64,000 nucleotides of DNA, from assembly GCA_964344935.1 (NCBI GenBank), contig CAYFPL010000008.1, forward strand, positions 76,754 through 140,753, written 5' to 3'. Numbering within the stretch: position 1 is the first letter of the stretch; the number at the start of each line of letters is the position of its first letter. The stretch is from an uncultured Rhodospirillaceae bacterium (lineage in GTDB: Bacteria > Pseudomonadota > Alphaproteobacteria > GCA-2731375). Below the pieces are notes generated by a model, which worked only from the letters and a program-made list of their open reading frames with translations, made no database searches and was not told the DNA's origin. Positions 12,048-62,523 of the stretch are shown piece by piece. The translations under genes and the position numbers were made by a program.

Positions 12048-13199
12048 ATGTCGCGAAAATCAATTCTGATCACATCGGTTTTGGCAGCGGCCGTTGTTGC
12101 GGCGCCTATGCAGATGGCAGGTGCAGTGGAACCGGTTAAACTGCGCTGGGCATCGGATCATAATGGACCGCCGCATCCAGCCGCCATCGCGGAAGTCTAC
12201 TTTGCTGAACAGGTGGAAAAGCGCATTCCCGGCAGCAAGGTACAGATTTTCTGGGCCAAGTCACTCTATACCGTGCCTCAGGGCACCAAAGCGTTGACCC
12301 AGGGCAACCTGGAGATCCTTACAGGCCAGTTCGGCAAGACCTCCAGTGTTGAACCTTTAGCCAATGTGTTGCTGGGCGCAGGCAAACTGTCCACCGTCGG
12401 GGCCATCGATGCGGTCGATCGCACCAAGACTTTCGCGGCCCTGGCTGATCATTTCAACAAAGCCCATGACATCACCATCATGGGGGCGGGACATTTGAGC
12501 ATGTATATGGGCGCAGGTGCGGTGAAGGGCCGGTTGATCGGACCGGCCGATTTCTCCGGCAAGAAGATGCGCTCCATGGGTCCGGCCGAGAACGCCCTGT
12601 TGAGCGCGCTCGGCGCCAATCCCCAGGCCATGGCTTTCGGCGACGTACCGCCGGCCCTGCAGACCGGCGTCATCGACGGCCTGCTTACCTCGCTAGGTGG
12701 TTTCAATGCCACCAAGGAGCAGGCCCCCTACTTCACCGTAGCTGGCCTCAACGGGATCGTCGGGGATTACTATTGGTTTGGCGTTTCGAACCGCTGGTGG
12801 AGCCGGCTGTCCAAGGAACAGCAGGACGTCCTGGCCGACATCATCAAGAACGATTTCATCCCGTTTCAGCGCGTCATCAACTATTGCAACGACCAGCGCA
12901 CCTTGGCCAGGTTCGTCACCACGGATAAGAGCGCACCGGGCATCTATGTCCTGAGCCAGGCAGAAGCCGCCATCATCAAGAAGGCCGAGGGCGGCGCCAC
13001 CAACGAATGGATCAAGACAAAGGTCAACGATGTCGGCGACAAACTGGTCGACCAATTCTCCATGGAAGCGGAAGCCTTGGTGAAGGCCAACCCGCCGGGT
13101 TCCCATGCCTTGGAGAAAACGGACTGCTCGAAGTACGAAAAGTATTTCGCCAAGTACGGCAAGGGGGGAGACCTGTACAAGGCGAAGAGCCGGAAATAG
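12048..13199 (+). CDS. TRAP transporter substrate-binding protein (DctP family)
   Basis: Signal peptide MSRKSILITSVLAAAVVAAPMQMAGA, and a ~380-aa DctP-like fold positioned immediately before the DctQ/DctM genes. Confidence 0.8.
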   Translation: MSRKSILITSVLAAAVVAAPMQMAGAVEPVKLRWASDHNGPPHPAAIAEVYFAEQVEKRIPGSKVQIFWAKSLYTVPQGTKALTQGNLEILTGQFGKTSSVEPLANVLLGAGKLSTVGAIDAVDRTKTFAALADHFNKAHDITIMGAGHLSMYMGAGAVKGRLIGPADFSGKKMRSMGPAENALLSALGANPQAMAFGDVPPALQTGVIDGLLTSLGGFNATKEQAPYFTVAGLNGIVGDYYWFGVSNRWWSRLSKEQQDVLADIIKNDFIPFQRVINYCNDQRTLARFVTTDKSAPGIYVLSQAEAAIIKKAEGGATNEWIKTKVNDVGDKLVDQFSMEAEALVKANPPGSHALEKTDCSKYEKYFAKYGKGGDLYKAKSRK

Positions 13200-17233: not shown

Positions 17234-17365
17234 TGCAATGCTCCCGTTTATAGGCGCCGGGAACGTTATCATACCTTTGCCCCATGCCGCCAAAACCGGC
17301 GGAAACGGTGCTACTGCCATTTGTCAAAACCCAGAAAGCCCGATACCCTCCCATTTGCAGCCGCA

Positions 17366-20300: not shown

Positions 20301-20419
20301 GTGGCAACGACACAAGCCGCCTTTACTATCTCGCCGGCCATCTGAACCTGGACAATTCCCCAGCGGATAACTGGAAACTGCTCGTCGGTGATACGGGACC
20401 GCGCGAGATCCAGCCGTGA
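17366..20419 (+). CDS. Large secreted hexaheme c-type cytochrome of unknown function
   Basis: Six CXXCH motifs: CLNCH, CLGCH, CLGCH, CLSCH, CGTCH, CQDCH. The signal peptide MSLGAVLHRLARFILAILVSGPAVLLLDPGFALA precedes them. The final ~380 aa carry no haem motif. Confidence 0.7.
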   Translation: MSLGAVLHRLARFILAILVSGPAVLLLDPGFALADACTYPTKQPKPLLPADPELCRTFDPVVRNPSGLPQRAYQLKLQVYLDGFCHRDKKAGWVRDKFVRDTGPSTAQLSQGIWQNSYHGTHAPVVIWYSPEMYTWMKQNRTASDEDKKSDTSAVPDGAIMVKEMYPAPGSVCREVTPEYLLPITQGAAIMVRDAKASHDGWYWGWFGWSGWQPDYPAEKPKALTNMGFAQYCLNCHSSARGNQTFAALKNIENEPGRPLVYLSAHENPVPGAAGKHREKTSSSTGPPRRTVGLDAYNPAFQAAFKLKDGAPAPSEATVSKMPPQNYDHTFVSAGGPTIHDEYLTSSQCLGCHDAGSTGLSFEMAIPVAPDDPAARGDQMWNHSPYATWRTSPMGLAGRDPIFFSQLASETQSFHPGISKVVENTCLGCHGILGQRQFAIDHFAKSGPDAGSVEERCGAFTREKLDSVPWPEHKSANPRLADAKHGALARDGISCLSCHRMVLGEAASARAAAQEQNDCVIARQEFLNPGLQGFAKTFTGSFLVDGPTNIYGPFKEPKATPMRDALGNTPAHSSTISMSQTCGTCHTVHLPVFHKGKQIGHVYEQLTFPEWAFSAYRTGISPDGPLPEGAGQRAKSCQDCHMPSVDPDGSPTRSRIASIQEYSNFPQAEFTRAPDEIDLPIREGFSRHTLVGLNIFLTKMAQQFPDVLGIGTQDPMMGKRGIDPLIYTERKMLDQAANATVKISVPSVRVDNDKGTLNADVRVVNHVGHKFPSGVGFRRAFISFEVMDQGGEVIWSSGGTDGVGRIVGDDGKPLAGEMWWTADCAKRLEPNKRIHQPHYQTISRQDQVQIYQELVSAPADIGSPQCGHGAPPQGALTTSFLSICAEVKDNRLLPHGYLPLEKRIAIARALGAKADMAEDSGPTAVGNDPDYADGKGGGDTLNYAIPLSDLKGEPAQVRARMWYQATPPFYLQDRFCTARGNDTSRLYYLAGHLNLDNSPADNWKLLVGDTGPREIQP

Positions 20420-44847: not shown

Positions 44848-47598
44848 TCATGCGCCGTTGTCCTCGTCCCCGTCACCTTGCTCCGTTAACCAGGCGACAG
44901 AGACCACACGCTCATCCTTTTCCACGTCGAACAGTGTCACGCCCTGTGTATTGCGCCCGGCGATGCGGATGTCGTGCACTGGTGTTCGGATCAGGCGGCC
45001 GGTATCGGTCACCAGCATGATGTGGTGGTTATCCTCGACAGGGGCGGAAGCTATGACCGGACCATTCCGATCGGAGGCTTCGATATTGATGATCCCTTGG
45101 CCGCCGCGGCCCGTAACCCGGTATTCATAAGCCGACGTGCGCTTGCCATAACCGTTCTCGGTAATGGAGAGAACGAATTGTTCCGCCTGCTCCATATCAG
45201 CGGTTTCAGCCGGCGGATTGGGCAACGGTTCGCCCGTACCCTCCCCTTCGCCTTCAGCCCGGCGGCGGGCGTTGGACCAGCGCAGATATCGTTCCCGTAC
45301 ATCGCTGTCGAAATCCGTATGGCGCAGGATCGACATGGCGATCAGTTCATCATCGCCAACCAATCGGATGCCCCTGACCCCCACTGAATCCCGGCTCTTG
45401 AAGACGCGCACATCGATAACGGGGAAGCGGATGCATTTGCCTCGCCGGCCTGAGAGCAAGATGTCGTCGTTGGCATCGCAAATGGCGACGCCAACGATGC
45501 GGTCCCCTTCTGGCAGTTTCATGGCGATCTTGCCGTTTGCCTGGACCCGCCTGAAATCCGCCAACTCGTTACGCCGCACCGACCCGGAAGCGGTGGCGAA
45601 CATGACGTATCGGTCGGCCCATTCCGCTTCGTCTTCCGGCAGGGGCAACACGGTGTGTATGGTCTCGCCCGCTTCCAAGGGGAACAGATTGACCATCGCC
45701 TTGCCGCGGGCCTGCGGTGCCGCCATGGGCAAACGGAAAACCTTGAGGAGGTAGACCTTGCCCGTGGAGGAAAAAAACAGCATGGGCGTATGGGTATTGG
45801 CCACGAAAAGCTGGCTGACGAAATCCTCGTCCCGTGTTGCCATGCCTTGCCGGCCCTTGCCGCCGCGCCGCTGCGGCCGGTAGGTGGACAGCGGCACCCG
45901 CTTGACGTAGCCCTTGTGGGAGACCGTCACCACCATGTCCTCACGCTGGATCAAGTCCTCGTCTTCCTGATCCGCCTCGGCCTCGATGATCTCGCTGCGC
46001 CGGGGTGTGGCGAAGCGTTCCTTCATGTCCAGCAGTTCTTCGCGGATGATGGACTTCAGGCGGTCGTCGGATTGCAGGATATCCAGATAGTCCAGAATCT
46101 TTTCACCCAGTTCCCGCAACTCTTCGCCCACTTCGTCCCGGCCTAGGGCGGTCAATCGTTGCAGGCGCAAATCCAGGATGGCTCTGGCCTGAGTTTCGCT
46201 CAGGCGATAAACCCCATCCACCACCTGATGGCCGGGCTCGTCGATCAATTGGATCATCGCTACCACATCGTGGGCCGGCCAGTCCCGTTCCATCAATTGT
46301 GCCCGCGCGGTGGCTGGGTCAGGGGCGGCCCGGATCAGCGCGATAATGGCATCGATATTGGCCACCGCAATGGCCAGACCGGCGAGGACATGGGCCCGCT
46401 CTCGCGCCTTGCCAAGGAGATACTTGGTGCGCCGGGTGACCACCACCTCGCGGCTGTCCACGAAGGCGCCGATCATCTCGGCCAGGTTCATCAGTTCCGG
46501 TCGGCCCTTGTTGAGAGCCAGGCTGTTGACGCCGAACGAGGTTTGTAGAGGCGTGAAGCGGTACAGCTGATTCAGCACCACATCCGCCATGGCATCCCGT
46601 TTCAATTCGATCACCACGCGCACGCCGCTGCGGTCGCTCTCGTCCCGCAGGTCTGAGATTCCTTCGATGCGCTTTGCGCGCACCGCCTCGGCGATCTTTT
46701 CGATCATGCCGGCTTTGTTGACCTGATAGGGCACCTCGGTGACGATGATGGCTTCCCGATCCTTGCGGATGGTCTCGATTTCTGTCCGGCCGCGCATGAT
46801 GACCGAGCCGCGCCCGGTACGGAATGCGGCCGTTATGCCGGCCCGGCCCAGGATCAGACCGCCGGTTGGAAAATCCGGGCCCAGGATGTGCCCCATTAGG
46901 TCTTCGACGCTGATGCTGGGGTTATCCAGATAGGCGCAGCAGCCGTCGATCACTTCGCCCAGATTGTGAGGCGGGATATTGGTTGCCATGCCCACGGCGA
47001 TGCCGCCGGCGCCGTTGACCAGCAGGTTCGGGAACATGGCCGGCAGGACCACGGGTTCCGAGGCCGAGCCGTCGTAATTGTCCTGAAAATCGACGGTTTC
47101 CTTGTCGATATCCGCCAGCAGCATCTCCGCCGGCTTGTCCATGCGCACTTCCGTATAACGCATGGCAGCAGCCCGATCGCCGTCCATCGAGCCAAAATTG
47201 CCCTGGCCGTCCAGCAGCGGCAAGCGCATGGCAAAATCCTGGGCCATGCGCACCATGGCGTCATAGATGGCCTGGTCGCCATGAGGGTGGTAGCGGCCCA
47301 TGACATCGCCCACCACGCGGGCGGATTTGCGATATGGCTTGTCTGAGGTGTAGCCGGCCTCGTACATGGAATAGAGGATGCGCCGGTGTACTGGTTTCAG
47401 GCCGTCCCGGGCGTCGGGAATGGCCCGGGAGACGATCACGCTCATTGCGTAATCGAGGTAGGATTTGCGCATCTCCGTCTCGATGGCGATGGGCAAAATG
47501 GCGTCGCTGCCGTCGCTGCCACCGTCGCTGCCGGAGGGCGGCGCGGGCGGATCCATTGGTGGCTCGTCGGGCGGAGGGGTCTGGTTGTCGTCGGTCAA
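44848..47598 (-). CDS. gyrA: DNA gyrase subunit A, with a Pro/Gly/Ser-rich N-terminal extension
   Basis: [38 protein letters not shown], the active-site Tyr region and C-terminal beta-pinwheel repeats; 916 aa. Confidence 0.95.
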
Positions 47599-47757: not shown

Positions 47758-49347
47758 CTAGACCTTCGCCGGTTCAGTGCCCGGCCGCCGACTGACAACC
47801 CTACCTTTCGGAATCCGCAACAGGGTTGCCGGCACCATGGCGATGAAATAGGTGGCGCCGAGGAACAGGAACACATCCCGGAAAGCTAACATATTAGCCT
47901 GGGCATAGAGACTGGTGCCCAGCATCTGCAATGCCGCCAGGGGGTGCAGTTCCGTCGGCCAACCGAGCTGTGACAGAAGGCTCGACATGCCTTGCATCAG
48001 ATCCTGTGTCAGGATGTTGTCAGGGGTTTGTGACCCCGCCAGAGCCTCGGAAAAGACCGCGGTGCGGTGTTCCAGCGCAACGGCGATCATATTGACGCCC
48101 ATGGCGCCGCCCAATTGGCGCATGAAATTGACGGCGCCGGAGCCTTGGCTGACCAATTCGCTCGGCAGACTATGTAGAGCGGTGGCATTAATGGTCGGGA
48201 TGACAAAGGCCAGTCCGATACGGCCGATCACCAGCCACAGCGCAAAGGTCCAGAACGGTGTGTCCGTATGTGCCCCGGTCATCAGCATCGCCGAGAAGGC
48301 GAATGCACAGAGGCCGCCCAGGATCAGCCAGTGCCGCGGCAACCGGTCTGCCAGGCGGCCGCCAATGGGCATCAGCATCATCATGGTCAATCCCGCCGGT
48401 ACCATCAATAATCCGGAGCGCGTCGGGCTATAACTTTGCACGGTCTGAACGAACAATGGGATCAGATAGGTGGTGCCGTACAGGCCCGCGCCCAGGGCCA
48501 TACGCACAACTGCCGCCGCCGCGAATTGCTTGTTGAGGAACAGGCGCAGCTGCAGAATTGGTTCCGACGTACGCCATTCCCACCACAAAAAGGCCACGAA
48601 CGAGAGGACAAAAGTAGAGAAATAAACAGCAACGATGGGCGCATGCCAGCCTTCCCGCTGTCCCGAAGACAGGGCAATCAATATTGAGAAGACAAAGACC
48701 ACCAGCAATGAAAGCCCAGTCCAGTCAAAGGCCGGCTTGGCCTCCTTGGTGGTGCGCCATGGCATGAACAGCCAGGCCAGAAGGCTGCCCAGGGCCGCCA
48801 CGGGGATTGAGGCGAAAAAGACGTAGTGCCAGTTGAAGGCATCCAGCAGAACGCCGCCGAAGAAGGGTCCCAAGGTCGGCGCCACCACGACACCGACCCC
48901 GAATAGACCCATGGCCTTGCCCCGTTGGTGAATGGGAAAAACCTGGAACATCAGGACCATGGAGAGCGGCTGTACCAGCCCGGCGCCCAGACCCTGCAGC
49001 ACCCGGCCGGTAGTCATGATGTCGATATTCGGCGCCAGCCCGCCCATGAAGGCGCCGATGGCAAAGATCACCATGGCGCCCAGGTAGGTGGCGCGCATGC
49101 CGAAGGATCGAACGAACCAATCGTTCAGCAGCATGGCCACGGTCATGGAAGCGATATAGCCTGTGGCCAGCCAATGCGCCGTATCCTGACCGACGCCAAA
49201 GGCGCCCATGATCACAGGAATAGCCACGTTGATCATGGTGGCGTTCAGCAGCATGGAAACGATACCTAGGACCACCGTGAAGGTCACGAAGGCCCGATAT
49301 TTCGCGCCGTACCGTTCGAAAAGGATCTTGACCGCGGCTTCCGGCAT
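47758..49347 (-). CDS. MFS DHA2 (EmrB/QacA-type, 14-TMS) efflux permease, tandem paralog 1
   Basis: 529 aa. INVAIPVIMGAFGVGQD...LLNDWFVRSFGMR...LLDAFNWHYVFF blocks are shared with the next two genes. It starts 4 nt after the paralog 2 stop. Confidence 0.85.
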   Translation of the reverse strand: MPEAAVKILFERYGAKYRAFVTFTVVLGIVSMLLNATMINVAIPVIMGAFGVGQDTAHWLATGYIASMTVAMLLNDWFVRSFGMRATYLGAMVIFAIGAFMGGLAPNIDIMTTGRVLQGLGAGLVQPLSMVLMFQVFPIHQRGKAMGLFGVGVVVAPTLGPFFGGVLLDAFNWHYVFFASIPVAALGSLLAWLFMPWRTTKEAKPAFDWTGLSLLVVFVFSILIALSSGQREGWHAPIVAVYFSTFVLSFVAFLWWEWRTSEPILQLRLFLNKQFAAAAVVRMALGAGLYGTTYLIPLFVQTVQSYSPTRSGLLMVPAGLTMMMLMPIGGRLADRLPRHWLILGGLCAFAFSAMLMTGAHTDTPFWTFALWLVIGRIGLAFVIPTINATALHSLPSELVSQGSGAVNFMRQLGGAMGVNMIAVALEHRTAVFSEALAGSQTPDNILTQDLMQGMSSLLSQLGWPTELHPLAALQMLGTSLYAQANMLAFRDVFLFLGATYFIAMVPATLLRIPKGRVVSRRPGTEPAKV

Positions 49348-49351
49348 ATAG

Positions 49352-50938
49352 CTATCCCGGCCTTGGCCGCAGGTTGGCCGGTATCTTGGAGGTTGTCGGT
49401 CTATCCCGCAGCAGTAATGCCGGGATCATGGTGGCGAAATAAACCACGGCAACAAGCAGGAAGACATCGCCATAGGCCATCATCGATGCCTGGGAATAGA
49501 CGCTGCGGCCGACAAGGTAGAGGGCACCCGCCGGCGTCATTTCAAACGGCCAGCCTAACTGACCTAGCAAATGGCCGAGCTGGGTCATGATCTGGAGGGT
49601 TGCCGCATTGTCGGGCGTCTGCAGTCCGGCAAAGGCATCTGAGAAGAATGCGGTGCGCCTTTCCAAGGTCAATGCCAGCAGATTGACGCCGATGGCGCCC
49701 CCCAAATTCCGTGAGAAGTTCAAGGCGCCCGAGCCTTGGCTCAACAGTTCTGGTTTCAATGTGGATACAGCACTGACCGTCAAGCTAGGCATCATGGCCG
49801 CGAGGCCAATCCGGCCCACACAGATCCAGGCAGCAAAAACCCAGAACGGCGTGTCCGTGTGGGCCTGCATCATCAACAGCGAGGAAAAGCCGAACATGAA
49901 GAGGCCGAACAGGATCATCTGATAGCGGGGCAATTTATCGCTGAGGCGGCCGGCGATGGGGAACATTGCCATCATCAGCAAACCGCCCGGAATCATCAAC
50001 AATCCCGACCGCGTCGGGCTATAGCTTTGCACCGTCTGCACGAACAGCGGAATGACGTATGTGGAACCATAAAGACCGACGCTCAACACCATGCTGACGA
50101 AGACCGAGGCGGCGAACTTTTTGTTCCAGAAAACCCGCAACTGCAGAATCGGCGATTCAATCGACAATTCCCAGATGATGAAGGCGACGAGGGAAATGAT
50201 AGCGACCGAGAAATAGACCGAGATGATGGGCGCCCCCCAGCCGTCCCGCTGTCCATTGGACATGCCGGTCAGGAACATGCCGATGAATAACGCGACCAGG
50301 ATCAGTCCGGTCCAATCGAAGGTGGGAAGCGGTTCCTTTCGGCCTTTGCCGGGCATGAAAACGATGGCCAGCAACACGCCAACGACCGCCACCGGGGCCG
50401 ACATGAAGAACACGTAATGCCAGTTGAAGGCATCCAGCAGCACGCCACCGAATGTCGGCCCCAGGGCGGGTGCCACGATGATGCCGACACCGAACAGACC
50501 CATGGCTTTGCCGCGCTGGTCAACGGGAAAGACCTGGAACATCAAGATCATGGACAGGGGTTGAACGATCCCGGCGCCGGTACCCTGTAGCACGCGAGAG
50601 AGGATCATGATGTCGATGGTCGGGCTTAGTCCACCCATGATAGCGCCGAAGATGAAGATCGACATGGCGCCGATATAGGTCGCCTTCATGCCGAAAGCGC
50701 GGACAAACCAATCATTCAGCAGCATGGAGACGGTCATGGCCGCAATGAAGCCGGTGGACAGCCAATGCACCTTGTCCTGGCCGACGCCAAAGGCGCCCAT
50801 GATCACCGGAATGGCCACATTGATCATAGTCGCTGTCAGCACCATGGCCATGGTGCCCAGCATGGCGGTAAACGAGACGAAATAGCGATAGCGCGGGCCG
50901 TAGCGCGCGAACATCGCATCTATGGCCGGATTGCCCAT
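49352..50938 (-). CDS. MFS DHA2 (EmrB-type) efflux permease, tandem paralog 2
   Basis: 528 aa, collinear with paralogs 1 and 3 along the full length (~80% aa identity by eye). Confidence 0.85.
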   Translation of the reverse strand: MGNPAIDAMFARYGPRYRYFVSFTAMLGTMAMVLTATMINVAIPVIMGAFGVGQDKVHWLSTGFIAAMTVSMLLNDWFVRAFGMKATYIGAMSIFIFGAIMGGLSPTIDIMILSRVLQGTGAGIVQPLSMILMFQVFPVDQRGKAMGLFGVGIIVAPALGPTFGGVLLDAFNWHYVFFMSAPVAVVGVLLAIVFMPGKGRKEPLPTFDWTGLILVALFIGMFLTGMSNGQRDGWGAPIISVYFSVAIISLVAFIIWELSIESPILQLRVFWNKKFAASVFVSMVLSVGLYGSTYVIPLFVQTVQSYSPTRSGLLMIPGGLLMMAMFPIAGRLSDKLPRYQMILFGLFMFGFSSLLMMQAHTDTPFWVFAAWICVGRIGLAAMMPSLTVSAVSTLKPELLSQGSGALNFSRNLGGAIGVNLLALTLERRTAFFSDAFAGLQTPDNAATLQIMTQLGHLLGQLGWPFEMTPAGALYLVGRSVYSQASMMAYGDVFLLVAVVYFATMIPALLLRDRPTTSKIPANLRPRPG

Positions 50939-50939
50939 C

Positions 50940-52529
50940 TCAGCCCGTCCTTGCCGCTAGAACCGGCCGTGCCTTGGGCCGCGGCTTCCAATCCCGCAGC
51001 AACAGCGCCGGGATGGCAGCAATGAAGAAGGCGACTGCGACAAATAGGAAGAGGTCGCGGAACGCCATCATGGATGCCTGGGAATAGACGCTTTGGCCGA
51101 CCAGGTACAATACGCCGGTCCGGGCCATTTCGAACGGCCAGCCCAATTGGCTCAGCAAATGCCCGATCTCGAGCATGAATTGCTGGGTAGCGCTATTGTC
51201 CGGTGTTTGCAGGCCGGCAAACGCATCGGAAAAGAACGCAGTGCGCTGTTCCAGGGTGACAGCAATGATGTTGATGCCAACCGCACCGCCTAGGTTCCGC
51301 ATAAAGTTGAGTGCACCGGCGCCTTGGCTCAAATGGTCCGGTTTCAGGGTGGACACGGCCGTCACCATCATGGTCGGCATCATGGCCGCCTGCCCTAACC
51401 GCCCCAGCATCAGCCACATGGCGAAAACCCAAAAGGCCGTGTCGGTACCCGCCTGCATCATCAAGAGACAGGAAAACCCGTAAACAAAAAGGCCGAACAA
51501 GGTCATCTGATAGCCGGGCAGCTTGTCGGCCAGACGGCCGGCAATGGGCAGCATCAGCATCATGAAAATACCACCCGGAACCATCAACAGGCCGGAGCGC
51601 GTGGGGCTGTATCCCTGGATGGTCTGCACGAACAGGGGCACCAGGTAAGAGGTGCCGTAAAAGCCGAGACTCAGCACCAGCCCAACAATAATGGAAGCGG
51701 CGAACTTCCGGTTCGCGAACACCCGTACTTGCAGAATCGGATTGGCGGAGACCAACTCCCACCAAATGAAGGAAATACCCGACACCAGGCCGATCGAGAA
51801 CAACACGGAAATTATTGGCGAGCCCCAACCTTCCCTTTGGCCGCTGGACAACCCGGTCAATGAACAGATGATGCACAAGGACACCAGCACCAGGCCGGTC
51901 CAGTCGAAATCGGGCAGACGCCGTTCACCGCGCTCCCCACCGGGCATGAATATGGTCGCGAGGAAGATACCCAGGGCCGGCACCGGAACCGACATAAAGA
52001 AGACGTACTGCCAATTGAAGGCGTCCAGCAGAACGCCGCCCACGGTGGGGCCAACAGCCGGCGCAGCCATAATACCGACACTTAACAGACCCATGGCCCG
52101 GCCCCGTTGGTCGACGGGAAAGACTTGCAGGATCAACACCATAGCCAGGGGCTGGGCGACGCCGGCGCCGACGCCCTGCAGCGTCCGGGCCAGGATCACC
52201 AGGTCGATGGTATTGGACAGCCCGCCCATGACGCCGCCGAATATGAAGATGGCCATGGCGCCGATATATGTGGTGCGCATGCCGAAGGAACGCACGCACC
52301 AGTCATTCAGCAGCATCGAGACAGTCATGGCGGCGATGAAGCCGGTAGAGACCCAATGCACCTTGTCCTGGCCGACACCGAAGGTGCCCATAATCACGGG
52401 AATGGCCACGTTGGTCATGGTCGCCGTCAGGGCCATGGCCATGGTGCCAAGCATGGCCGTGAAGCTTACATAGTAGCGATAGCGCGGCCCAAACCGCGCG
52501 AACATCGCGTCAATCGCGGCTGATTGCAA
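50940..52529 (-). CDS. MFS DHA2 (EmrB-type) efflux permease, tandem paralog 3
   Basis: 529 aa. Its start overlaps the HlyD gene end by 20 nt. Confidence 0.85.
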   Translation of the reverse strand: MQSAAIDAMFARFGPRYRYYVSFTAMLGTMAMALTATMTNVAIPVIMGTFGVGQDKVHWVSTGFIAAMTVSMLLNDWCVRSFGMRTTYIGAMAIFIFGGVMGGLSNTIDLVILARTLQGVGAGVAQPLAMVLILQVFPVDQRGRAMGLLSVGIMAAPAVGPTVGGVLLDAFNWQYVFFMSVPVPALGIFLATIFMPGGERGERRLPDFDWTGLVLVSLCIICSLTGLSSGQREGWGSPIISVLFSIGLVSGISFIWWELVSANPILQVRVFANRKFAASIIVGLVLSLGFYGTSYLVPLFVQTIQGYSPTRSGLLMVPGGIFMMLMLPIAGRLADKLPGYQMTLFGLFVYGFSCLLMMQAGTDTAFWVFAMWLMLGRLGQAAMMPTMMVTAVSTLKPDHLSQGAGALNFMRNLGGAVGINIIAVTLEQRTAFFSDAFAGLQTPDNSATQQFMLEIGHLLSQLGWPFEMARTGVLYLVGQSVYSQASMMAFRDLFLFVAVAFFIAAIPALLLRDWKPRPKARPVLAARTG

Positions 52530-53763
52530 TCTCGACCTCGACCATCATGCCGGGCCGCAGAAGACCTTCAGTCTGCGGCACGGCGATTTTTACCGGCAGA
52601 CGCTGGGTAATCTTAGTGAAGCTACCCGAGGGATTGGGGCTGGGCAGTAAGGCAAACTGGTTGGTCGCGGCGTTGCCGATGCGCACGACTTCGCCGACCA
52701 CATCCAAATCGGGATAGGCATCGACGGATATCTTGGCCTTCGCCCCAAGTTTGACGTTGCGGATGTCGGTTTCCTTTACGTTTGCCTCGACCCAGATGAC
52801 GCTGGAATCGTGCATCAACAGCAAACGCTGGCCCCGGGCCACGTATTCTCCGGGCTCGATGAACGTACGATCGACGGTGCCGGCGCTGGGCGCCTTGATG
52901 GTGCGATCCGAAAGATCAAGCTGTTGACGCTCGAACTCGGTGCTTAGGCGTTCTTCGTCGAATTGCAGTGAGGCAATGCGGCCGCGCAGGACATCCATAC
53001 GTTGACGGTCCGCCTGCGCCTCCATGACAGAAGCATTGGCCGCCGCCACATCCGCCTGGCCCTTAAGAACCTGTTGGCCCGCCATGCGGTAAGCCGTGCG
53101 CAATGATTCCCAACGCTGTCGCGAAATCACCTTTTTCGCCAGCAGGGATTGCCCGCGCTCGAAATCGTTCTTGATCTGCTCCAGTTCCGTATCCAGACCT
53201 GCCTTGGCAGCCTGTGCCGCCGTCAGGGCGGCGCGGCTGGCTTCCAACCGGCCACGGGTTTGCTGATCGATCATCCGCACTTCGGCTTCGATCTGTTGCC
53301 GTTCGGCCTGCAGGGATTTGCGCTGAGCCGCGATTTCCCGAAGTCGCAGGGCGGAATCACGATTGTCGATCATAATCAGGGGATGGTTGGCTTCCACCTT
53401 ATGGCCCTCCGAGACCGGCACATCCGTGACCCAGCCGTCGATGCGGGAGGAAATCATAATCATGTCCGCCTTGATGCGGGCGTCATAGACCACGACGTTG
53501 GTATAGCGGCCATAGATCCAATAGGTCAGCCCGGCGATGCCGACGAGCACCGCCGCAACCAGAAGAACCCGGCCGATGCCCCGCCGCAGGCCTGAGGATC
53601 GGCTGGGCAGTCCGCCTACTTCCGTTTGGCCCGATTGCCCCGACTGGCCGGTAGCGGTTTCCGCTTCGCTGTCCGCCGGGTTGGTTTGCTTGTCATCCTG
53701 CGGCTGCAGCCGCTGGGGATTCGATTTGTCGTTCACCTGATCAATCCGATCCTGTCGTTCCAT
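52510..53763 (-). CDS. HlyD-family membrane fusion protein (EmrA-type)
   Basis: N-terminal TM anchor, coiled-coil region (QRKSLQAERQQIEAEVRMIDQQTRGRLEASRAAL) and C-terminal beta-barrel domain; 417 aa. Confidence 0.85.
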   Translation of the reverse strand: MERQDRIDQVNDKSNPQRLQPQDDKQTNPADSEAETATGQSGQSGQTEVGGLPSRSSGLRRGIGRVLLVAAVLVGIAGLTYWIYGRYTNVVVYDARIKADMIMISSRIDGWVTDVPVSEGHKVEANHPLIMIDNRDSALRLREIAAQRKSLQAERQQIEAEVRMIDQQTRGRLEASRAALTAAQAAKAGLDTELEQIKNDFERGQSLLAKKVISRQRWESLRTAYRMAGQQVLKGQADVAAANASVMEAQADRQRMDVLRGRIASLQFDEERLSTEFERQQLDLSDRTIKAPSAGTVDRTFIEPGEYVARGQRLLLMHDSSVIWVEANVKETDIRNVKLGAKAKISVDAYPDLDVVGEVVRIGNAATNQFALLPSPNPSGSFTKITQRLPVKIAVPQTEGLLRPGMMVEVEIAISRD

Positions 53764-54283
53764 AAGCTACGTTCTTCGGCGCGCCCTTGATATCGGGAAC
53801 CGTCACCTGCCTTTCGATGCGTTCAAAGACGGCGAGGCAATGGGCTAGATCCTCTTCCGATATCCCGGCCAAATTTTCACGCCGCACATCGGCGGCGACG
53901 CTGTCGAGGACCTCGACCATGCGCCAACCTTCGTCGGTCAAATGCACAGTTTTGCCGCGCCGATCGGACTTGTCTTGCCGGCGTTCGATCAATTCCTGTT
54001 TTTCAAGGTTATCCAGGATATGCACCAACGTCGGTCCCTCGACGCCGACGTAATTGGCTAGCGCTTTCTGCTGGAACCCGTCCGCCCCGCGGCGCAAATG
54101 CATCATTACCACCCAACGGGCCTGGGTGAGGCCATGGGGGCGCATCTTTTCATCCAGCCGGGCTCGCCAAAATCGGGCCAAACGGCCCAGGCGAAAACCG
54201 AACTGGTCCCGAGGGTCGTCTGCCGCTTCCACCTCTTCCTCGGGCTTTTCGCTGTTTTCAGAGTTATTCGCCGGACTATCCAT
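53741..54283 (-). CDS. MarR-family transcriptional regulator (EmrR-like)
   Basis: Winged HTH HGLTQARWVVMMHLRRGADGFQQKALANYVGVEGPTLVHILDNLEKQELIERRQDKSDRRGK. It is the first gene of the efflux operon. Confidence 0.85.
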   Translation of the reverse strand: MDSPANNSENSEKPEEEVEAADDPRDQFGFRLGRLARFWRARLDEKMRPHGLTQARWVVMMHLRRGADGFQQKALANYVGVEGPTLVHILDNLEKQELIERRQDKSDRRGKTVHLTDEGWRMVEVLDSVAADVRRENLAGISEEDLAHCLAVFERIERQVTVPDIKGAPKNVAYGTTGSD

Positions 54284-54446
54284 GGGTTATCCGAAGGTTA
54301 CAATCGTTCGTCTCATCATAAATTGCCAGCTATTGATTAGCATACTATTAATTCGGAGACAAATTATCGCTTAGCATGGGAATTCCCGGCTGCAATGGCG
54401 TAGACTGTCAAAATCGAAAACCAAAACCCGAACGAAGGATCACGCA

Positions 54447-54770
54447 ATGCTACTTGATGTCCGCACCTACACCTGCCGTCCTGGCACGATCAACAAGCAC
54501 CTGGAACTCTATAAGGAAAAGGGCTTCGGTCCCCAGACGAAGAACCTGGGCCAACCCCTGGCATACCTGAAAACCGAAACCGGAAACCCAAATCAGTATG
54601 TCCATATCTGGGTCTATGAAAACGCCGGCGATCGGGAAGCAAAGCGGGCCGCCTTGTGGTCCGACCCGGATTGGATCGCATACACCCAAGCCTCGGCGGA
54701 ATTGGGCGCCCTCGTCGAACAGCAGAACATGTTGATGAATCCAACGGATTTCTGCCCGCTGAATAAGTAG
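54447..54770 (+). CDS. NIPSNAP-family protein
   Basis: 107 aa, MLLDVRTYTCRPGT...YVHIWVYEN pattern typical of NIPSNAP/dimeric alpha-beta barrel proteins. Confidence 0.7.
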   Translation: MLLDVRTYTCRPGTINKHLELYKEKGFGPQTKNLGQPLAYLKTETGNPNQYVHIWVYENAGDREAKRAALWSDPDWIAYTQASAELGALVEQQNMLMNPTDFCPLNK

Positions 54771-54851
54771 GCTGCAACGGCAATCCTGCGGGGCGGCGAA
54801 GATTATTTTCGCCGCCCCAGAACTTCAATTTTAACCAGAAGAAATGACGCA

Positions 54852-55823
54852 ATGGTATTGAAATTAAATAATAAACTAAAATTTGGTGTTCAAACGATTC
54901 ACCGCCGGACGGAGCCGGCAACAGGACCCTGGCTGCCCGAGTTGGAGGATGGTCGCGCATTGGTCGAAATGGTGGATCGTCTTGGCTACGATTCCCTTTG
55001 GGTTGGCGATCATCTGTCCTTCGCCATTCCAATTTTGGATCCCTTTATCCAGTTGGCCCAGGCCGCTACCTTTAGTTCAAGACTAGAGCTGGGTGTCGGC
55101 GTCTATCTGCTGCCGCTGCGCCACCCCGGTCCGGTAGCAAAACAGGCGGCCACCCTGGATCATCTCTCCAACGGCCGCTTGATCCTGGGCGTCGGCGTCG
55201 GCGGTGAATTCAAGACCGATTTCCAGGTGGCCGGGGTGGACCCCTCGGAACGGGGTGCACGTCTGACAGAGGGAATAGAAGTCCTGCGCAAACTATGGCG
55301 TGGCAAACCAGTGGCGCATGACGGAAAATTCTTCTCGTTCCCAGAACTGACCATGGCCCCGCCGTCCCGCCAAGCCGGCGGTCCTCCCATCTGGTGCGGC
55401 GGCCGTTCGCCGGCCGCCCTGCGCCGGGCCGGCGAAATAGCCGACGGATGGCTCTCTTATGTTGTGACGCCGGAAATGTATCGCCAATCCCTCGAAAAGA
55501 TCCAGGAGGCCGCTGTTGGTGGCGCAGACAGGGATTTCAGCACCGGTCACCTTCTCTTCGCTACCGTGGATGATAGCTATGAAAGCGCCCTGGACAAGGC
55601 GACAGAGACCTTGAGTGTCCGTTACGCCATGGATTTCCGCGAAGCGGCCAAGAAATATTGCGCCCTGGGCCGGCCCCAGGACGTGGCGGAGCGGTTAATG
55701 GAATTCCATGCCGCAGGCGTGCGCCATATCATCATGGATTTCGTCGGCCCATATGAAGACCGGGACAAACAGTTCATCCGGTTTTCCGAGGAAGTTCTGC
55801 CCCTGATGGGGGACTTGCGTTAG
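54852..55823 (+). CDS. LLM-class (luciferase-like) flavin-dependent oxidoreductase
   Basis: KFGVQTIHR...[16 protein letters not shown]...[17 protein letters not shown] is an LLM TIM-barrel signature. Confidence 0.8.
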
Positions 55824-56977: not shown

Positions 56978-57042
56978 TCAGGGTGCTGCAAGGGCGGCGT
57001 CTGAAGCCTTTCTTAACCATATGCCGCGAAGCTTTGCCGATC

Positions 57043-59679
57043 ATGAGCGTGGACGAACAATCCCTGTCACCGGCGAACCCGGATCCGGAGATTCTTTGGC
57101 AACAGGCCAATGAACTCGTGGGCCGTGGCGCCCTGGTGGAGGCGATCCCACTGTACCTGCAGGTCTCGGATCTGTGGCCGGAGCGTCCGGCGGTTTGGCT
57201 GAATCTTGGCATCGTACTGGGCGCGCTGCAGCGCCATTACGAGGCACGGCAATGCCTGGAGCGCGCCTTGGAGATGGATCCTGGCCAACCCCAGACCCAT
57301 TTCCAACTGGGCCAGATGCACGAACATCTGGGAAGGCCGGACGCCGCAGCGGAAAGCTATTTGGCGGCCACCGCGCGGGACCCTAACTTGCTGGAAGCCT
57401 GGCAGAATCTTGCCGATATCTGCCTACAAGCAGGACAGCTCGAATTGGCCGAACAATATCTGGGAACTGTGTTGGCACGCGATCGCAACCATGGGCCCGG
57501 CAACTTCTCTCTCGGCAATCTGCGCCAGGCCCAGGGCGATGACGAGGCCGCCGCGCGTCACTTCGCCATCGCCTACGAGGCCACGGGTGATCCCGCCTGT
57601 GGCAACAACCTGGCGGCCGCTCTGGAACGTCTAGGTCGCGGGGGTGAGGCCATCGACATATTACAGGCGGTAGTCGCGGCCCGGCCCGACTATAAACTGG
57701 CCTGGAACACCCTGGGCGGGCTGTTCATGGGGATGGAGCAGTTCGACCGCGCCAAAGAGGCCCTGGAACGGGCCATTTATCTTGACCGCGACTTTCACGC
57801 CGCCCGCCACGGTCTAGCTCGCTGCCTGGTGCAGATGCGGGATTTGGCGGGAGCACGGGAACAATTTTCCCAAGCGCTGCTGGCAACACCCAACGATGTC
57901 TCGCTCATCAAGGACTACCTGGTGGTTCTCGAACATCTGGGCGAGTTCGAAGCTGCCCTAGCCCTGCGGGCGGAGGCCATGGTCAAGGTGCCCGATGATG
58001 CGGAACTGATCGCCAACCAGGCCAATCTGCTGCATTCCCTGCGCCGTTTTGACGAGGCGTTGGAGTTGGCAGCGCACGCCCTGGCAATCGACCCAGGAGA
58101 ATTACGCGCTCAAATCACCATCGCCTCCACCTACATCGTTACGGAACGGCTTGACGAGGCACGGGCGCAACTGATGCAAATCGTCGAGTCCGGCACCGAA
58201 GACCGTTTGATCCTGAGCAAAGTGGGCGCCCTGTTCGAACAGATCAAGGAGGCAGAGGAAGCCGTCAGGGTCTATGAACGCATTCAGGACCTGTATTCCG
58301 ATGACAGTGAGGCCGCCATTCGCATCTTCGATCTGAAGATGGCCATGTGCGATTGGCAGGACTATGACGCCGTCTGCCGGGCCCAGATCGAGCAGCTTGA
58401 GAATGGCGAAGGCGATATCGACGTCTTCAATCTGCAGGCACTTCCTGTGGACTATGCTTTTATCGGCAAAGTCGCGAAACGTGCGGCTGACAAGATCGCC
58501 GCCGATGCGCGTGGCGCCATCGATCCCCCGGTTTTGATTCATCCCAGCCCCCGCAAGCCTGGGCGTATCCGCCTGGGCTATGCCCTGGCCTATACCTGGT
58601 TCCACAGCCTGCCCCTGGTGCACAAGGAGATTGTCGCCCGCCATGACCGCGACCGTTTCGAGGTCTTCGGTTATTCCGTCCGCCCCAGCGACGGCAGCAA
58701 TTTCTGCGCCGATTACCGCGGCGCTTTCGATCATTTTCGGGATCTGCCCGATGCTGCGCCTTATCTGGCGGCCCAGACGATCCACGGCGACGGTATCGAT
58801 ATTCTGATCGATGTTACCGGCCTGACCTCGATCAATTGCATGCCGGTAAGCTCGTTTAGGCCGGCGCCCATTCAGATGCACGGTTATGGCTATTCCATCA
58901 CCACCGGTGCCGACTACATCGATTATCTGATCACTGACCGAACCTATATCCCAGAGAACTGGGAAGAGGTGGGGCCGGAAAAACTGCTGTACCTGCCGAA
59001 TACCTTCATGCCGACCAAGCGTCCGGAAAAGATCGGCGGGCAGGTTTCAAGGGCGGATGTGGGGCTCCCCGAAAACGGCATTGTCTTCTGCAACTTCAAT
59101 CACCCTTGCAAATTCGAACCGGTCATCTTCTCCGCCTGGATGGAAATCATGAAACAGGTTCCCGGCAGCGTCATGTGGTTCGGAGCCTGGATGCGCGATA
59201 CGCAAACAAACCTGCGTCGGGAGGCGGCAAAATTTGGTATCGACGGCGAACGCCTCGTCTTCGCCGATATCGTCGAACATGAAAACCATCTGGCCCGCCT
59301 GGCCGTGGCTGACCTGGCGTTAGACAACCTGCATCACGGCGGCGGCATCACATCCGTCGATGCGTTGTGGGTAGGTCTGCCGGTCTTGACCATTCTGGGC
59401 GACAAGCCGGGTGGCCGCCTGGGCGCCACATTGTGCCGGGCTGCAGGCGTACCCCAGATGATCGCGGAAGACCTAAGGGTCTATGTGGAGCGGGCGGTGG
59501 AGTTAGCCAACGATAGGCTGCAACGGCAAAAACTGCGCGAGAAACTGATTGCCGGTCGAGAAACCCACGCCTTATTCGACAATGACCGTTATGTCCGCAA
59601 TCTCGACAAGGCTTTGGCCGCGGTTTGGGACAATCACCTTGCGGGAGAGCCGCCGCGTCGCCTTGAAATCACCGAGTAA
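57043..59679 (+). CDS. TPR-repeat protein with a C-terminal GT41 (O-GlcNAc-transferase-like) glycosyltransferase domain
   Basis: About 12 N-terminal TPR units are followed by an OGT-like catalytic region (VFCNFNHPCKFEPVIFSAWMEIMKQVPGSVMW...LDNLHHGGGITSVDALWVGLPVLT). The track ORF starts at 56983. Confidence 0.75.
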   Translation: MSVDEQSLSPANPDPEILWQQANELVGRGALVEAIPLYLQVSDLWPERPAVWLNLGIVLGALQRHYEARQCLERALEMDPGQPQTHFQLGQMHEHLGRPDAAAESYLAATARDPNLLEAWQNLADICLQAGQLELAEQYLGTVLARDRNHGPGNFSLGNLRQAQGDDEAAARHFAIAYEATGDPACGNNLAAALERLGRGGEAIDILQAVVAARPDYKLAWNTLGGLFMGMEQFDRAKEALERAIYLDRDFHAARHGLARCLVQMRDLAGAREQFSQALLATPNDVSLIKDYLVVLEHLGEFEAALALRAEAMVKVPDDAELIANQANLLHSLRRFDEALELAAHALAIDPGELRAQITIASTYIVTERLDEARAQLMQIVESGTEDRLILSKVGALFEQIKEAEEAVRVYERIQDLYSDDSEAAIRIFDLKMAMCDWQDYDAVCRAQIEQLENGEGDIDVFNLQALPVDYAFIGKVAKRAADKIAADARGAIDPPVLIHPSPRKPGRIRLGYALAYTWFHSLPLVHKEIVARHDRDRFEVFGYSVRPSDGSNFCADYRGAFDHFRDLPDAAPYLAAQTIHGDGIDILIDVTGLTSINCMPVSSFRPAPIQMHGYGYSITTGADYIDYLITDRTYIPENWEEVGPEKLLYLPNTFMPTKRPEKIGGQVSRADVGLPENGIVFCNFNHPCKFEPVIFSAWMEIMKQVPGSVMWFGAWMRDTQTNLRREAAKFGIDGERLVFADIVEHENHLARLAVADLALDNLHHGGGITSVDALWVGLPVLTILGDKPGGRLGATLCRAAGVPQMIAEDLRVYVERAVELANDRLQRQKLREKLIAGRETHALFDNDRYVRNLDKALAAVWDNHLAGEPPRRLEITE

Positions 59680-59782: not shown

Positions 59783-60937
59783 ATGTCATACAAGGTCACG
59801 TCCATGATGGTCGAAGGCGTCCGCCATGCTTTTGTCGAGATCGGCGAGGGCTATGACGACGGCGGTGCGCGCAGCGGCTATGTGAACCTGGAGGGCCACA
59901 GCGAACACGCCGTCCAACTCAATTCCATGATGGTGCAGCACATTAAGAACAGCGGCGCCACGGAACTATTCACTGATCCCATGCAGATCAACGTGGATAT
60001 ATGCACCTCTTGCGATATGCATTGCCCGTTCTGCCCCTACCATGGCGATATGCCCCATACGGATTTCAATCCTTCCAAGCGGCTGATGGATATGGAGACG
60101 ATCCGGGATATCCTCGGCGCTTTCGCCAACAGCCATATCATCTCACTTGGCTGCTCGGGCGAACCGTTCCTGCACCCCAAACTTCCCGAGATTGTCGACC
60201 TTTGCTACGAGCTTCACCCCTATTCCGAAGTACACCTCTCCACCGACGGTCTGCGCGCCGATCGTTTCGACATTCCGACCTTCTTCGCCAAACCGAATAT
60301 CCGGGTGATCAACTTCTCCATCGATACGCTCTCGGCGGCGGAGCATCAGAGCTGGACCAAGGTCAAAAACAGCCTGAACACGGCCCAGGAAAACCTGCGC
60401 CAAGTGGCGAAATGGAAATACGTCAACCGGCGGGACGATCTGCGCGTCATCGCCTCCAGTGTTTTGAAGAAATCGGAAATTCATCGAATCGGCGAGATCA
60501 TCGACTTCTATCAGCCTTTCGAAATCGACTATCTGGGCTTTCAGAATTACATCCCCCCCGATCGCAACGGGGACGAGACCCTTACCACGGAAGATGTGGA
60601 GATCATGGACTTCCTGCGGGAAATTCAGGCCACAAAGAAAAGCAAATTTCGCGTCGGGCTGGTCCAGCCCATTGATAACAAGCGGGACCGAAACTATTGC
60701 TCCAATCCGTGGAACCTACTGACGATCGATCCCGACCGTAACATCAGCCCCTGTTGCAATGTCCCCCGTCATCCCCGCCACGGCGGTTTTGAGGGTCATG
60801 ATAGCTGGAACAACGATGTCCTGGCCCGGACCCGCGAGACCCTGGCACGCGGCGATCTGCCCATGGACTATTGCATCAACTGCTGGGCCAACGAGAATCC
60901 CGATAACCGTCTCTACATCGAAGGGCAAGACGCATGA
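59783..60937 (+). CDS. Radical SAM enzyme with a C-terminal SPASM/twitch-like Cys cluster
   Basis: CDMHCPFC is the CxxxCxxC cluster-binding motif. The C-terminal Cys residues are ISPCCNVPRH...DYCINCW. The stop overlaps the next gene as ATGA. Confidence 0.75.
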   Translation: MSYKVTSMMVEGVRHAFVEIGEGYDDGGARSGYVNLEGHSEHAVQLNSMMVQHIKNSGATELFTDPMQINVDICTSCDMHCPFCPYHGDMPHTDFNPSKRLMDMETIRDILGAFANSHIISLGCSGEPFLHPKLPEIVDLCYELHPYSEVHLSTDGLRADRFDIPTFFAKPNIRVINFSIDTLSAAEHQSWTKVKNSLNTAQENLRQVAKWKYVNRRDDLRVIASSVLKKSEIHRIGEIIDFYQPFEIDYLGFQNYIPPDRNGDETLTTEDVEIMDFLREIQATKKSKFRVGLVQPIDNKRDRNYCSNPWNLLTIDPDRNISPCCNVPRHPRHGGFEGHDSWNNDVLARTRETLARGDLPMDYCINCWANENPDNRLYIEGQDA

Positions 60938-62523
60938 GCCCCCGCGAAGTCATCCTGGTCAATCCGCCCGCGGAGGTGACGCGGGAGGAAAATTACGACC
61001 TGCCGGAATATCCTCATGTCGGTCTGGCCTATATCGCCGGCTATCTGGAGAAACGCGATGTCATCGCGCCGGCAGTGATCGATGGCAAGATGCAGCGCCT
61101 GTCCATGGACCAGGTTGTCGAGCAGGTGGCCGCCCGCAAGCCCCTGGCCGTCGGCTTTTCGGCCATGACGCATATGGTGATGACGGCGGCGAAGCTGGCC
61201 AAACGGATCAAGGCCCTATCGCCCGAGACGGTAATGGTGCTTGGCGGCTTCCACGCCACCTTCTTGCCCCAGCGCAGCCTGGATGAATTCCCCGAGATCG
61301 ACTACGTGGTCGCCGGCGAAGGCGAGATCGCCTTTGTGGAACTGATTGCCGCCCTGCGCGCGGGCGAACTATCGCCGCGAATTCCCGGTGTCTGGCATCG
61401 GGGCGAAGGCGGCGGCAACGCTGGCCGCGGCGCAATCGAGGATGACCTGAACCAATTAGACCCGCCGGCCTGGCATCTGTTCGACAAACGGGCCATGGCG
61501 GATCATTGCCGTTCCATCCCCATCATGTCGCAACGGGGCTGTCCCTTCGGCTGCAACTTCTGTTCCCGACCGTATGGCCGGGTGGTGCGCCAGATGGACC
61601 CGGCCGCCGTGGTCGATCACATGGAATATTGCGTCGAACAACTGGGCGTCAGCAACTTCCAGTTTTATGACGAGACCTTCACGGTCAAGAAGGACCACGT
61701 CGCCGCCATCTGCCAAGGCATCATCGACCGGGGATTGGAGGTTCGTTGGAATGCTCTGGTTCATGCCAACACCCTGGACGAGGCGATCGTCCGGCATATG
61801 AAAGATGCCGGCTGTGTCGAAATCTGCATGGGTGTGGAAAGCGGCAACGAGGACATCATGGCGGCCATGAAGAAGGGCGTCAGCAAGGAGAAGATCCTGC
61901 GTGCCGGCGAGATCTTGAAAAAAGTCGGCCTGCCGTTTAGTGGCACATTTATCCTCGGTCATCCGAACGAAACCATCGATACCATCATCGATACCATCCG
62001 TTTCGCCCACCGCTTTAAGCCGACCCGGCCCGCCTTTGGCATCATGGTGCCCTATCCCGGCACCCTGGTCTGGGAATTGGCGCGCACGGGCAAAGGCGGC
62101 TACCTGAACGTCTCCGAGAACTGGGACGAATACAACAAGCACTATGGCAACGCGGTAGAGATGGTGGGCCTGCCTCGCCAGACCCTGGAGTTGATGAAGC
62201 TGATCGCTTATCTGCACGCCTATTTCTATCACCCGGACATGGATGCGTTTCTCGATAAAATCCGCCTCGGCCTGCCGGATGCGGATAAAGCTGTATTCCT
62301 GAGCGAACAGATCGCTCGCGTCCGGGGTGAAATGGCCCAAGCCGATTATGACACCGTCTATGCGGACGCCAATAAACGCAAGGCGATCCTGACCTTCATG
62401 GCACGGGAGTTCCAGGATTTGGGTCAGCAGCGTGTCTACAGCGCCGACGACGGCAAAGTTTTGCCCCATATGCTGCGCGACGAACTGATCTTCGAGGATA
62501 CGTCCTGGAAGACAGGCATGTAG
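60934..62523 (+). CDS. B12-binding-domain radical SAM enzyme (class B)
   Basis: The N-terminus is a cobalamin-binding Rossmann-like domain, followed by CPFGCNFC (CxxxCxxC) at aa ~203; 529 aa. Confidence 0.8.
   Translation: MSPREVILVNPPAEVTREENYDLPEYPHVGLAYIAGYLEKRDVIAPAVIDGKMQRLSMDQVVEQVAARKPLAVGFSAMTHMVMTAAKLAKRIKALSPETVMVLGGFHATFLPQRSLDEFPEIDYVVAGEGEIAFVELIAALRAGELSPRIPGVWHRGEGGGNAGRGAIEDDLNQLDPPAWHLFDKRAMADHCRSIPIMSQRGCPFGCNFCSRPYGRVVRQMDPAAVVDHMEYCVEQLGVSNFQFYDETFTVKKDHVAAICQGIIDRGLEVRWNALVHANTLDEAIVRHMKDAGCVEICMGVESGNEDIMAAMKKGVSKEKILRAGEILKKVGLPFSGTFILGHPNETIDTIIDTIRFAHRFKPTRPAFGIMVPYPGTLVWELARTGKGGYLNVSENWDEYNKHYGNAVEMVGLPRQTLELMKLIAYLHAYFYHPDMDAFLDKIRLGLPDADKAVFLSEQIARVRGEMAQADYDTVYADANKRKAILTFMAREFQDLGQQRVYSADDGKVLPHMLRDELIFEDTSWKTGM

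Follow-up and report, generated by a model that had tools for sequence, protein, structure and literature searches.

Tripartite pumps built around permeases from the major facilitator superfamily (MFS) form the class that is least understood among the efflux systems spanning the Gram-negative envelope, and their TolC3:EmrA6:EmrB1 architecture was resolved only recently. In the Escherichia coli pump, EmrB is monomeric (2026 cryo-electron microscopy; PMC13139468) and docks into EmrA by means of a bundle of periplasmic helices, together with three short loops on the periplasmic side; on its own, EmrB showed no antiport activity (PMC13139468). D29, R109 and Q112 form the cavity triad of E. coli EmrB. 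Its substrate site is lined by Q26, V27, D29, N62, V147, I148 and I288, for which mutants were reported, and I148 was reported to be substrate-selective (PMC13139468). Here we describe an efflux locus with three permease genes (emrB paralogs B1, B2 and B3) behind a single adaptor gene, located on contig CAYFPL010000008.1 of an uncultured Rhodospirillaceae bacterium (assembly GCA_964344935.1). The 64,000-nt stretch that was analyzed, positions 76,754 to 140,753 of the contig, is hereafter referred to as the window. We read the locus, with moderate confidence, as a marR-emrA-emrB1-emrB2-emrB3 operon whose permease gene underwent several old duplications in place, and in which the paralogs would be alternative EmrA partners with differing substrate ranges.

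The locus shares its general plan with E. coli EmrRAB (EmrAB-TolC, 8ZAL/8ZAR), namely a MarR-family regulator, an EmrA-type adaptor and a DHA2 permease with 14 transmembrane (TM) helices, the outer-membrane channel presumably being encoded elsewhere here too. It differs from EmrRAB in carrying three permease genes (2 to 5 in relatives) in place of one. EmrKY, VceCAB, FarAB-MtrE and EmrCAB of Chromobacterium likewise combine genes for an EmrA-type adaptor and for a DHA2 permease; their outer-membrane factor is borrowed in some cases and belongs to the operon in others, but the described examples are single-permease systems (PMC8277102). The closest multi-permease precedent is provided by MdtABC of E. 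coli and MuxABC-OpmB of Pseudomonas, each encoded by a single operon that pairs one adaptor gene with two permease paralogs in tandem. These, however, are RND pumps and obligate trimers, MdtB2C being a fixed heterotrimer (MdtBC is mentioned as a heterotrimer in PMC8277102), whereas E. coli EmrB is a monomer in its pump. A preliminary description of the locus had called three permeases with one adaptor unusual, and this impression was borne out by the efflux literature searched, in which neither such a layout nor a relevant precedent for tandem or numbered emrB paralogs was found.

Five open reading frames (ORFs) on the minus strand, all in the same direction, span positions 47758-54283, as previously placed. 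The first gene of the operon, marR (53741-54283, minus strand; 180 aa), encodes the regulator and overlaps by 23 nt with emrA (52510-53763, minus strand; 417 aa with an N-terminal TM helix), the sole adaptor gene. The 3′ end of emrA contains the TTG start of the promoter-proximal permease gene B1 (50940-52529, minus strand; 529 aa), giving a 20-nt overlap; an alternative ATG start lies at 52505. B2 (49352-50938, minus strand; 528 aa) is separated from B1 by 1 nt, and B3 (47758-49347, minus strand; 529 aa) from B2 by 4 nt. The permease genes are co-oriented with emrA, and the series directly adjoins it. Downstream of B3 lies gyrA (44848-47598, minus strand). The reported head-to-tail arrangement of three DHA2/EmrB ORFs of 528-529 aa was thus recovered, all of them intact and free of internal stops, as was their position downstream of a single HlyD-family adaptor and a MarR regulator. 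Matches to promoters and terminators within the operon did not exceed the shuffled-sequence expectation. Given this and the tight packing of the genes, we infer a single transcription unit with translational coupling as the simplest reading. An Rfam search of the window returned tRNA as its only match.

Against TIGR00711, the model of the DHA2/EmrB subfamily, each permease exceeded the curated cutoff (B1 324.3, B2 335.3 and B3 344.2 bits; cutoff 230.2). E. coli EmrB was the best match in both sequence and fold, at about 24% identity. For B1, the best solved relative was EmrB in PDB entry 8zal_J (E=2.9e-46). An AlphaFold2 (AF2) model of B2 was built from 100 homologues, with a predicted local distance difference test (pLDDT) value of 87.4 and a predicted TM-score (pTM) of 0.86, and its top PDB fold match was again E. 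coli EmrB 8zal_J (TM-score 0.79/0.84). The model has 14 long TM helices, the number typical of the subfamily (a 12-TM MFS core and two inserted helices), and, between the last two of them, extended periplasmic helices at ~425-478 that probably correspond to the bundle of E. coli EmrB; model helices 396-439, 445-460 and 465-502 follow the expected alpha1/alpha2/alpha3 layout. B1 and B3 align to B2 nearly gap-free, and the bundle region can be aligned across B1, B2 and B3, with no sequence alignment to E. coli beyond residue 452.

The adaptor matched Pfam HlyD_D23 and HlyD_3, and E. coli EmrAB supplies its adaptor match. The best family was TIGR00998 (EmrA/EmrK) at 175.5 bits, below the cutoff of 390.8, with the EmrA equivalog at 100.3 bits against 563, and the best solved relatives were Aquifex EmrA 4tko (3e-30) and E. 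coli EmrA 8zar_A (1.2e-23). Alignment to 8zar_A showed that the beta-CL motif FALLPSPNPSGSFTKITQRLPV retains the ring-1 Leu-Leu (E. coli L302/L303), whereas the ring-2 positions (E. coli I313/V315/V316) depart from E. coli and read T/I/T. The regulator gene, which is syntenic in every related locus, encodes a protein with Pfam matches to MarR and MarR_2 (E ~3e-10). Among NCBIfam models SlyA scored best (112.7 bits; cutoff 120), while MprA/EmrR NF008122 reached 27.2 bits (cutoff 157). Judged by these matches, the regulator is a SlyA-like member of the MarR family and, in another departure from E. coli, not an EmrR/MprA orthologue. In the earlier designation as an "EmrR-EmrA efflux operon", the adaptor half holds in the sense of an EmrA-type protein and the regulator half does not.

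The array had also been taken to suggest a recent tandem amplification, with block-wise ~80% amino acid and sampled ~85% nucleotide identity between copies. In full-length codon-aware alignments the pairwise values were lower: 70.8% (aa) and 70.8% (nt) for B1/B2, 62.5% and 64.8% for B2/B3, and 57.0% and 63.4% for B1/B3, and thus 57-71% for proteins and 63-71% for genes. The figures of ~80% and ~85% apply solely to codons 21-80 (TM1 to the first periplasmic loop), the most conserved block and the one that had been sampled, in which nucleotide identity is indeed 0.83-0.86. The motifs said to be shared by all copies were not: the 24-mer matches B1 and B2 exactly but has no counterpart in B3 at up to 3 mismatches, and the 15-mer matches B2 and B3 exactly and B1 with 2 mismatches. 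Third-codon-position identity among the copies is 47-50%. Synonymous divergence (dS) between the window paralogs is 1.34-1.44, which is saturated, with nonsynonymous-to-synonymous ratios (dN/dS) of 0.16-0.24. No gene-conversion tracts were seen between the paralogs, the longest exact run being 26 nt. When each copy was compared with its own orthologues in other genomes, dN/dS was 0.05-0.12 for B1, 0.04-0.13 for B2 and 0.07-0.13 for B3; with their uninterrupted frames, the copies are hence not pseudogenes.

A recent tandem amplification of a single emrB, or an expansion introduced by assembly, would account for the head-to-tail layout and for the one N-terminal block at 83-86% nucleotide identity, with its exact runs of 24 and 26 nt. 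It is at odds with the full-length and third-position identities and the saturated dS, with the presence of orthologues of each copy in other species, in separate clades of bootstrap 100, and with the recurrence of the three-copy layout in independent metagenome-assembled genomes (MAGs; L003, L004 and L009). The divergence disposes of the earlier concern about assembly collapse or expansion and, together with the dN/dS values and the lack of conversion tracts, leaves recent amplification with next to no probability. That the three copies are old, diverged and still under selection is well supported.

A scan of one genome per species gave 31 loci, which were annotated by BLAST against the window proteins. 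The gene order mnmA, LLM oxidoreductase, NIPSNAP, marR, emrA, emrB×n, gyrA is common to 21 loci from marine "Rhodospirillaceae/Alphaproteobacteria" MAGs, whose sources include oxygen-minimum-zone samples (Saanich Inlet, the eastern tropical North Pacific, ETNP, and the Arabian Sea) as well as deep-ocean sites, the Black Sea and the Caspian Sea. In these syntenic loci n ranges from 2 to 5: two copies in L014-L019 and L021; three, as in the window, in L003, L004, L009 and L013; four in L005-L007; five in L010 and L011, and also in L008 and L020 combined, which belong to one MAG; L012 has three copies and one fragment. By comparison, a single emrB follows marR-emrA in all 13 of the more remote relatives that were examined, namely L022-L029 and, at 49-55% identity, six taken from databases (L032-L038). 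In L035 the single emrB has gyrA immediately downstream, which points to the ancestral single-copy state.

The relationships among the copies were resolved in a neighbor-joining tree of 67 full-length emrB copies with 200 bootstraps. B1, B2, B3 and a fourth paralog, X, each form a clade with bootstrap 100, and B1 and B2 group together with 98; the B1, B2 and B3 clades each hold orthologues from many species. B3 is the oldest lineage. None of the loci with 2 to 5 copies lacks it; it is always the last copy, adjoining gyrA, and it splits from the "first-copy" lineage (support 100) after divergence from the single-copy L022. The first-copy lineage comprises B1, B2 and X. X is the third or fourth gene in 4- and 5-copy arrays and clusters with the gene that comes first in L018 and L019, both of them 2-copy genomes, and L010_3 and L011_3 are a younger B2 duplicate (dS ~0.6). 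The B1 stem is 0.129 against 0.010 for the B2 stem, indicating that B1 evolved ~13x faster after the B1/B2 duplication before slowing to an equal within-clade rate, and such asymmetric divergence is the classic pattern of one copy gaining a changed function.

X is missing from the window. The EmrA tree pairs the window with the 4-copy locus L006, which has X, and both sub-clades of the group with 3 to 5 copies contain X; most simply, therefore, the three copies of the window would represent a four-copy ancestor that has lost X. No breakpoint signal of chimeric B2/X or X/B3 genes, the footprint that loss of X might have left, was detected in the window. In L012, a 5′-truncated X remnant (12136-12723; residues 367-516) that is 91% identical to L010_4 lies between B2 and B3 genes that are both intact, and gives a view of gene loss under way inside the array. 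The history may be pictured as starting from one emrB copy beside gyrA. A first duplication would have produced the B3 lineage and the first-copy lineage; the latter would have given rise to X and to a B1/B2 ancestor, from which B1 and B2 were derived. B2 would have been duplicated again in one sub-lineage, and the window would have retained B1, B2 and B3 and lost X. It is well supported that, in a single clade of marine pelagic Alphaproteobacteria, the array evolves as copies are repeatedly duplicated in place and lost. As a separate observation, the junctions around the youngest duplicate in the five-copy arrays are ~56 nt long (L010:9512-9571, L010:11154-11212 and L011:12184-12243), compared with 1-4 nt at older junctions, and these spacers in L010 and L011 may preserve the duplication joint.

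The residues that E. coli EmrB uses were located in the paralogs by alignment. No paralog clade shows any substitution at the equivalents of R109, Q112, P121, N403 and R406, R109 and Q112 corresponding to R115 and Q118 here. Five of the seven positions matching the E. coli substrate-site residues differ among the window copies, and three are strictly paralog-diagnostic (B1/B2/B3): 33 (A/V/L), 153 (I/I/V) and 154 (M/I/V), the last being the equivalent of I148. With 39 paralog-diagnostic sites conserved across species, ~0.5 of the seven would be expected by chance (nominal hypergeometric P=0.011; 0.016 when the background is restricted to TM positions). Seven of the 39 fall in TM7 (P=0.006, uncorrected), and B3 has 13 clade-specific fixed substitutions, including G282R in TM7. 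The enrichment at substrate-site positions makes the substrate specialization suggested in the preliminary description plausible.

Dosage arrays are normally young or homogenized. Were the copies functionally redundant and kept for dosage or robustness, with no substrate specialization, one would expect what is partly seen, namely members of one family with identical invariant core residues in one operon and a variable copy number typical of dosage-driven arrays. The proteins are nevertheless 29-43% diverged with no conversion tracts, the 39 diagnostic sites are conserved between species and over-represented at positions matching the substrate site, and B1 was asymmetrically accelerated after duplication. 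Extrapolating from the E. coli pump, a 6:1 adaptor-to-permease ratio also leaves the value of extra permease dosage doubtful. Plain redundancy is accordingly regarded as very unlikely.

The docking regions were compared in the same way. Conservation across the paralogs is highest in the equivalents of the EmrA-contact loops (L1-2 1.00/0.75/0.75; L7-8 0.85/0.85/1.00), and the motifs flanking the bundle, RTAFFSDAFAGLQTPDN and QLGWP, are common to all paralog clades. These data bear on whether only one copy, for example the adaptor-coupled B1, pairs with EmrA while the others are stand-alone DHA2 exporters into the periplasm that merely share the operon. Many DHA2 pumps function without an adaptor, and QacA and NorC were among the structure matches of the permeases; translational overlap with emrA is confined to B1, and the bundle helix alpha2 differs between the paralogs. 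On the other hand, the bundle region is gap-free with its flanking motifs, and loops of the EmrA-contact type are present in all paralog clades. The copy nearest the adaptor gene belongs to another lineage (F2/X type) in 2-copy genomes, showing that position and lineage are not tied, and the inactivity of E. coli EmrB on its own (PMC13139468) also speaks against separate exporters. A division into one adaptor-bound and two free-standing permeases is therefore considered unlikely.

Another possibility is that the paralogs form an obligate hetero-oligomeric permease in which all three are needed, comparable to the MdtB2C RND heterotrimer or to a 3:6:2 EmrAB assembly. The genes look co-transcribed and translationally coupled, older work, as cited in PMC13139468, proposed EmrB dimers and a 3:6:2 ratio, and the DHA2 pump EfpA has been deposited as dimers (9bii). 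In the high-resolution E. coli structure, by contrast, there is one EmrB monomer per pump (PMC13139468), and a complete transport core is kept in every paralog. A copy number that varies freely from 2 to 5 in close relatives, with X lost and a second B2 gained, is hard to fit with a fixed stoichiometry and argues against a fixed heteromer; it suggests alternative rather than co-assembled subunits, unlike MdtB2C. An obligate heteromer is thus held to be improbable.

Four lines of evidence, namely the stoichiometry in E. coli, conservation of the core and of docking elements, the divergence at substrate-site positions and the varying copy number, together favor the reading of the paralogs as alternative partners of EmrA. 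In each pump complex a single permease monomer would then sit beneath an EmrA hexamer and an outer-membrane channel whose gene lies elsewhere, on the pattern of E. coli TolC3:EmrA6:EmrB1, with B1, B2 and B3 serving as alternative "cartridges" that dock on one shared adaptor. The paralogs would share the proton-coupled transport core and differ in their binding cavities, widening or partitioning the substrate range, and one MarR-type repressor would control the whole operon. The more general proposal, which we put forward only tentatively, is of a modular pump in which an EmrA6 scaffold with three outer-membrane factor (OMF) subunits, EmrA6-OMF3, could take any of 2 to 5 EmrB monomers, with docking and core elements constant, cavities diverged and the number of permeases tuned by birth and death, all without the carboxylate of the cavity (D29 in E. 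coli) to which the role of proton site is at present assigned by proposal.

Several observations weigh against this interpretation. The equivalent of E. coli D29 (residue 35, TM1) is T in B1 and B2 of the window and N in B3. By clade, the residue is T/M in B1, T in B2, S/A in X and N in B3, with S/T/A in the outgroups, and it is never acidic in loci L001-L029; the D221 equivalent is always S. Since the D29 carboxylate is absent, the transport chemistry may differ from that of E. coli EmrB, and the alignments show the carboxylate to be apparently dispensable across this whole subfamily of EmrB proteins. The enrichment P values given above are nominal, the TM7 excess would be lost once the 24 regions were corrected for, and the diagnostic sites of TM7 do not cluster significantly on one face of the helix (P=0.17). 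Conservation of the whole bundle is not above the protein average (0.76/0.54/0.54 versus 0.71/0.57/0.62). Its more variable part among the paralogs is helix alpha2, which in E. coli inserts into the EmrA ring, so that equal docking of all three paralogs is not assured. Finally, no OEP-domain (TolC/OEP family) outer-membrane factor was found among the operon genes and the 10 largest other ORFs of the window.

One adaptor gene with 2 to 5 diverged permease genes offers a comparative system in which constant docking and coupling surfaces can be set against variable substrate surfaces, and hence a natural system for studying adaptor-permease recognition. It is also a clean bacterial example of birth and death in a transporter array that keeps one chromosomal position, flanked by marR-emrA and gyrA. 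If permeases are indeed swapped on one scaffold, this probably widens the export range of the pump. The practical impact is limited, as the hosts are uncultured marine bacteria.

Upstream of marR, the intergenic region shared with a divergent NIPSNAP-family gene contains a near-invariant box, AATTAATAGTATGCTAATCAATAG (54330-54353, minus strand), which forms the imperfect palindrome TTAATAG-TATG-CTAATcAA. The box is conserved in almost every column across 16 aligned loci, 2-copy loci included, and is a candidate MarR/SlyA-type operator. A second near-invariant box in this divergent promoter region, CAGTCTACGCCA (54397-54408, minus-strand reading), is kept in 2-copy genomes too. The NIPSNAP-family gene itself (54447-54770, plus strand; 107 aa, PF07978 E=7.6e-25) occupies an apparent 568-nt gap between marR and the LLM oxidoreductase gene. 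Its region is conserved with codon-like periodicity in 16/16 aligned loci, and a GC-rich hairpin, GGGGCGGCGAAGAT/ATTTTCGCCGCCCC, lies 3′ of it at 54790-54818.

The luciferase-like (LLM-class) oxidoreductase gene follows at 54852-55823 (plus strand). Its product matched TIGR03619, "F420-dependent", at 181.7 bits (cutoff 166.9), which would be an unusual cofactor assignment for an alphaproteobacterium. In L007, two tandem LLM-class oxidoreductase copies with 85% and 73% identity to that of the window lie beside the locus (L007:4519-6577), indicating that duplication touches the flank as well.

Two further stretches downstream of mnmA are unrelated to the array. In the first, an 898-aa tetratricopeptide repeat (TPR)/glycosyltransferase-41 (OGT-like) protein is encoded at 56983-59679 (plus strand). 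A second emrAB-like pair had been suspected at 59783-62523 (plus strand) from one 529-aa ORF; both ORFs there turned out to encode radical-SAM proteins, one of them with a B12-binding domain. A 1032-aa ORF at 17321-20419 (plus strand) gave weak matches to cytochrome P460 and cbb3-type cytochrome c and adjoins a gene for a heparinase II/III-like protein.

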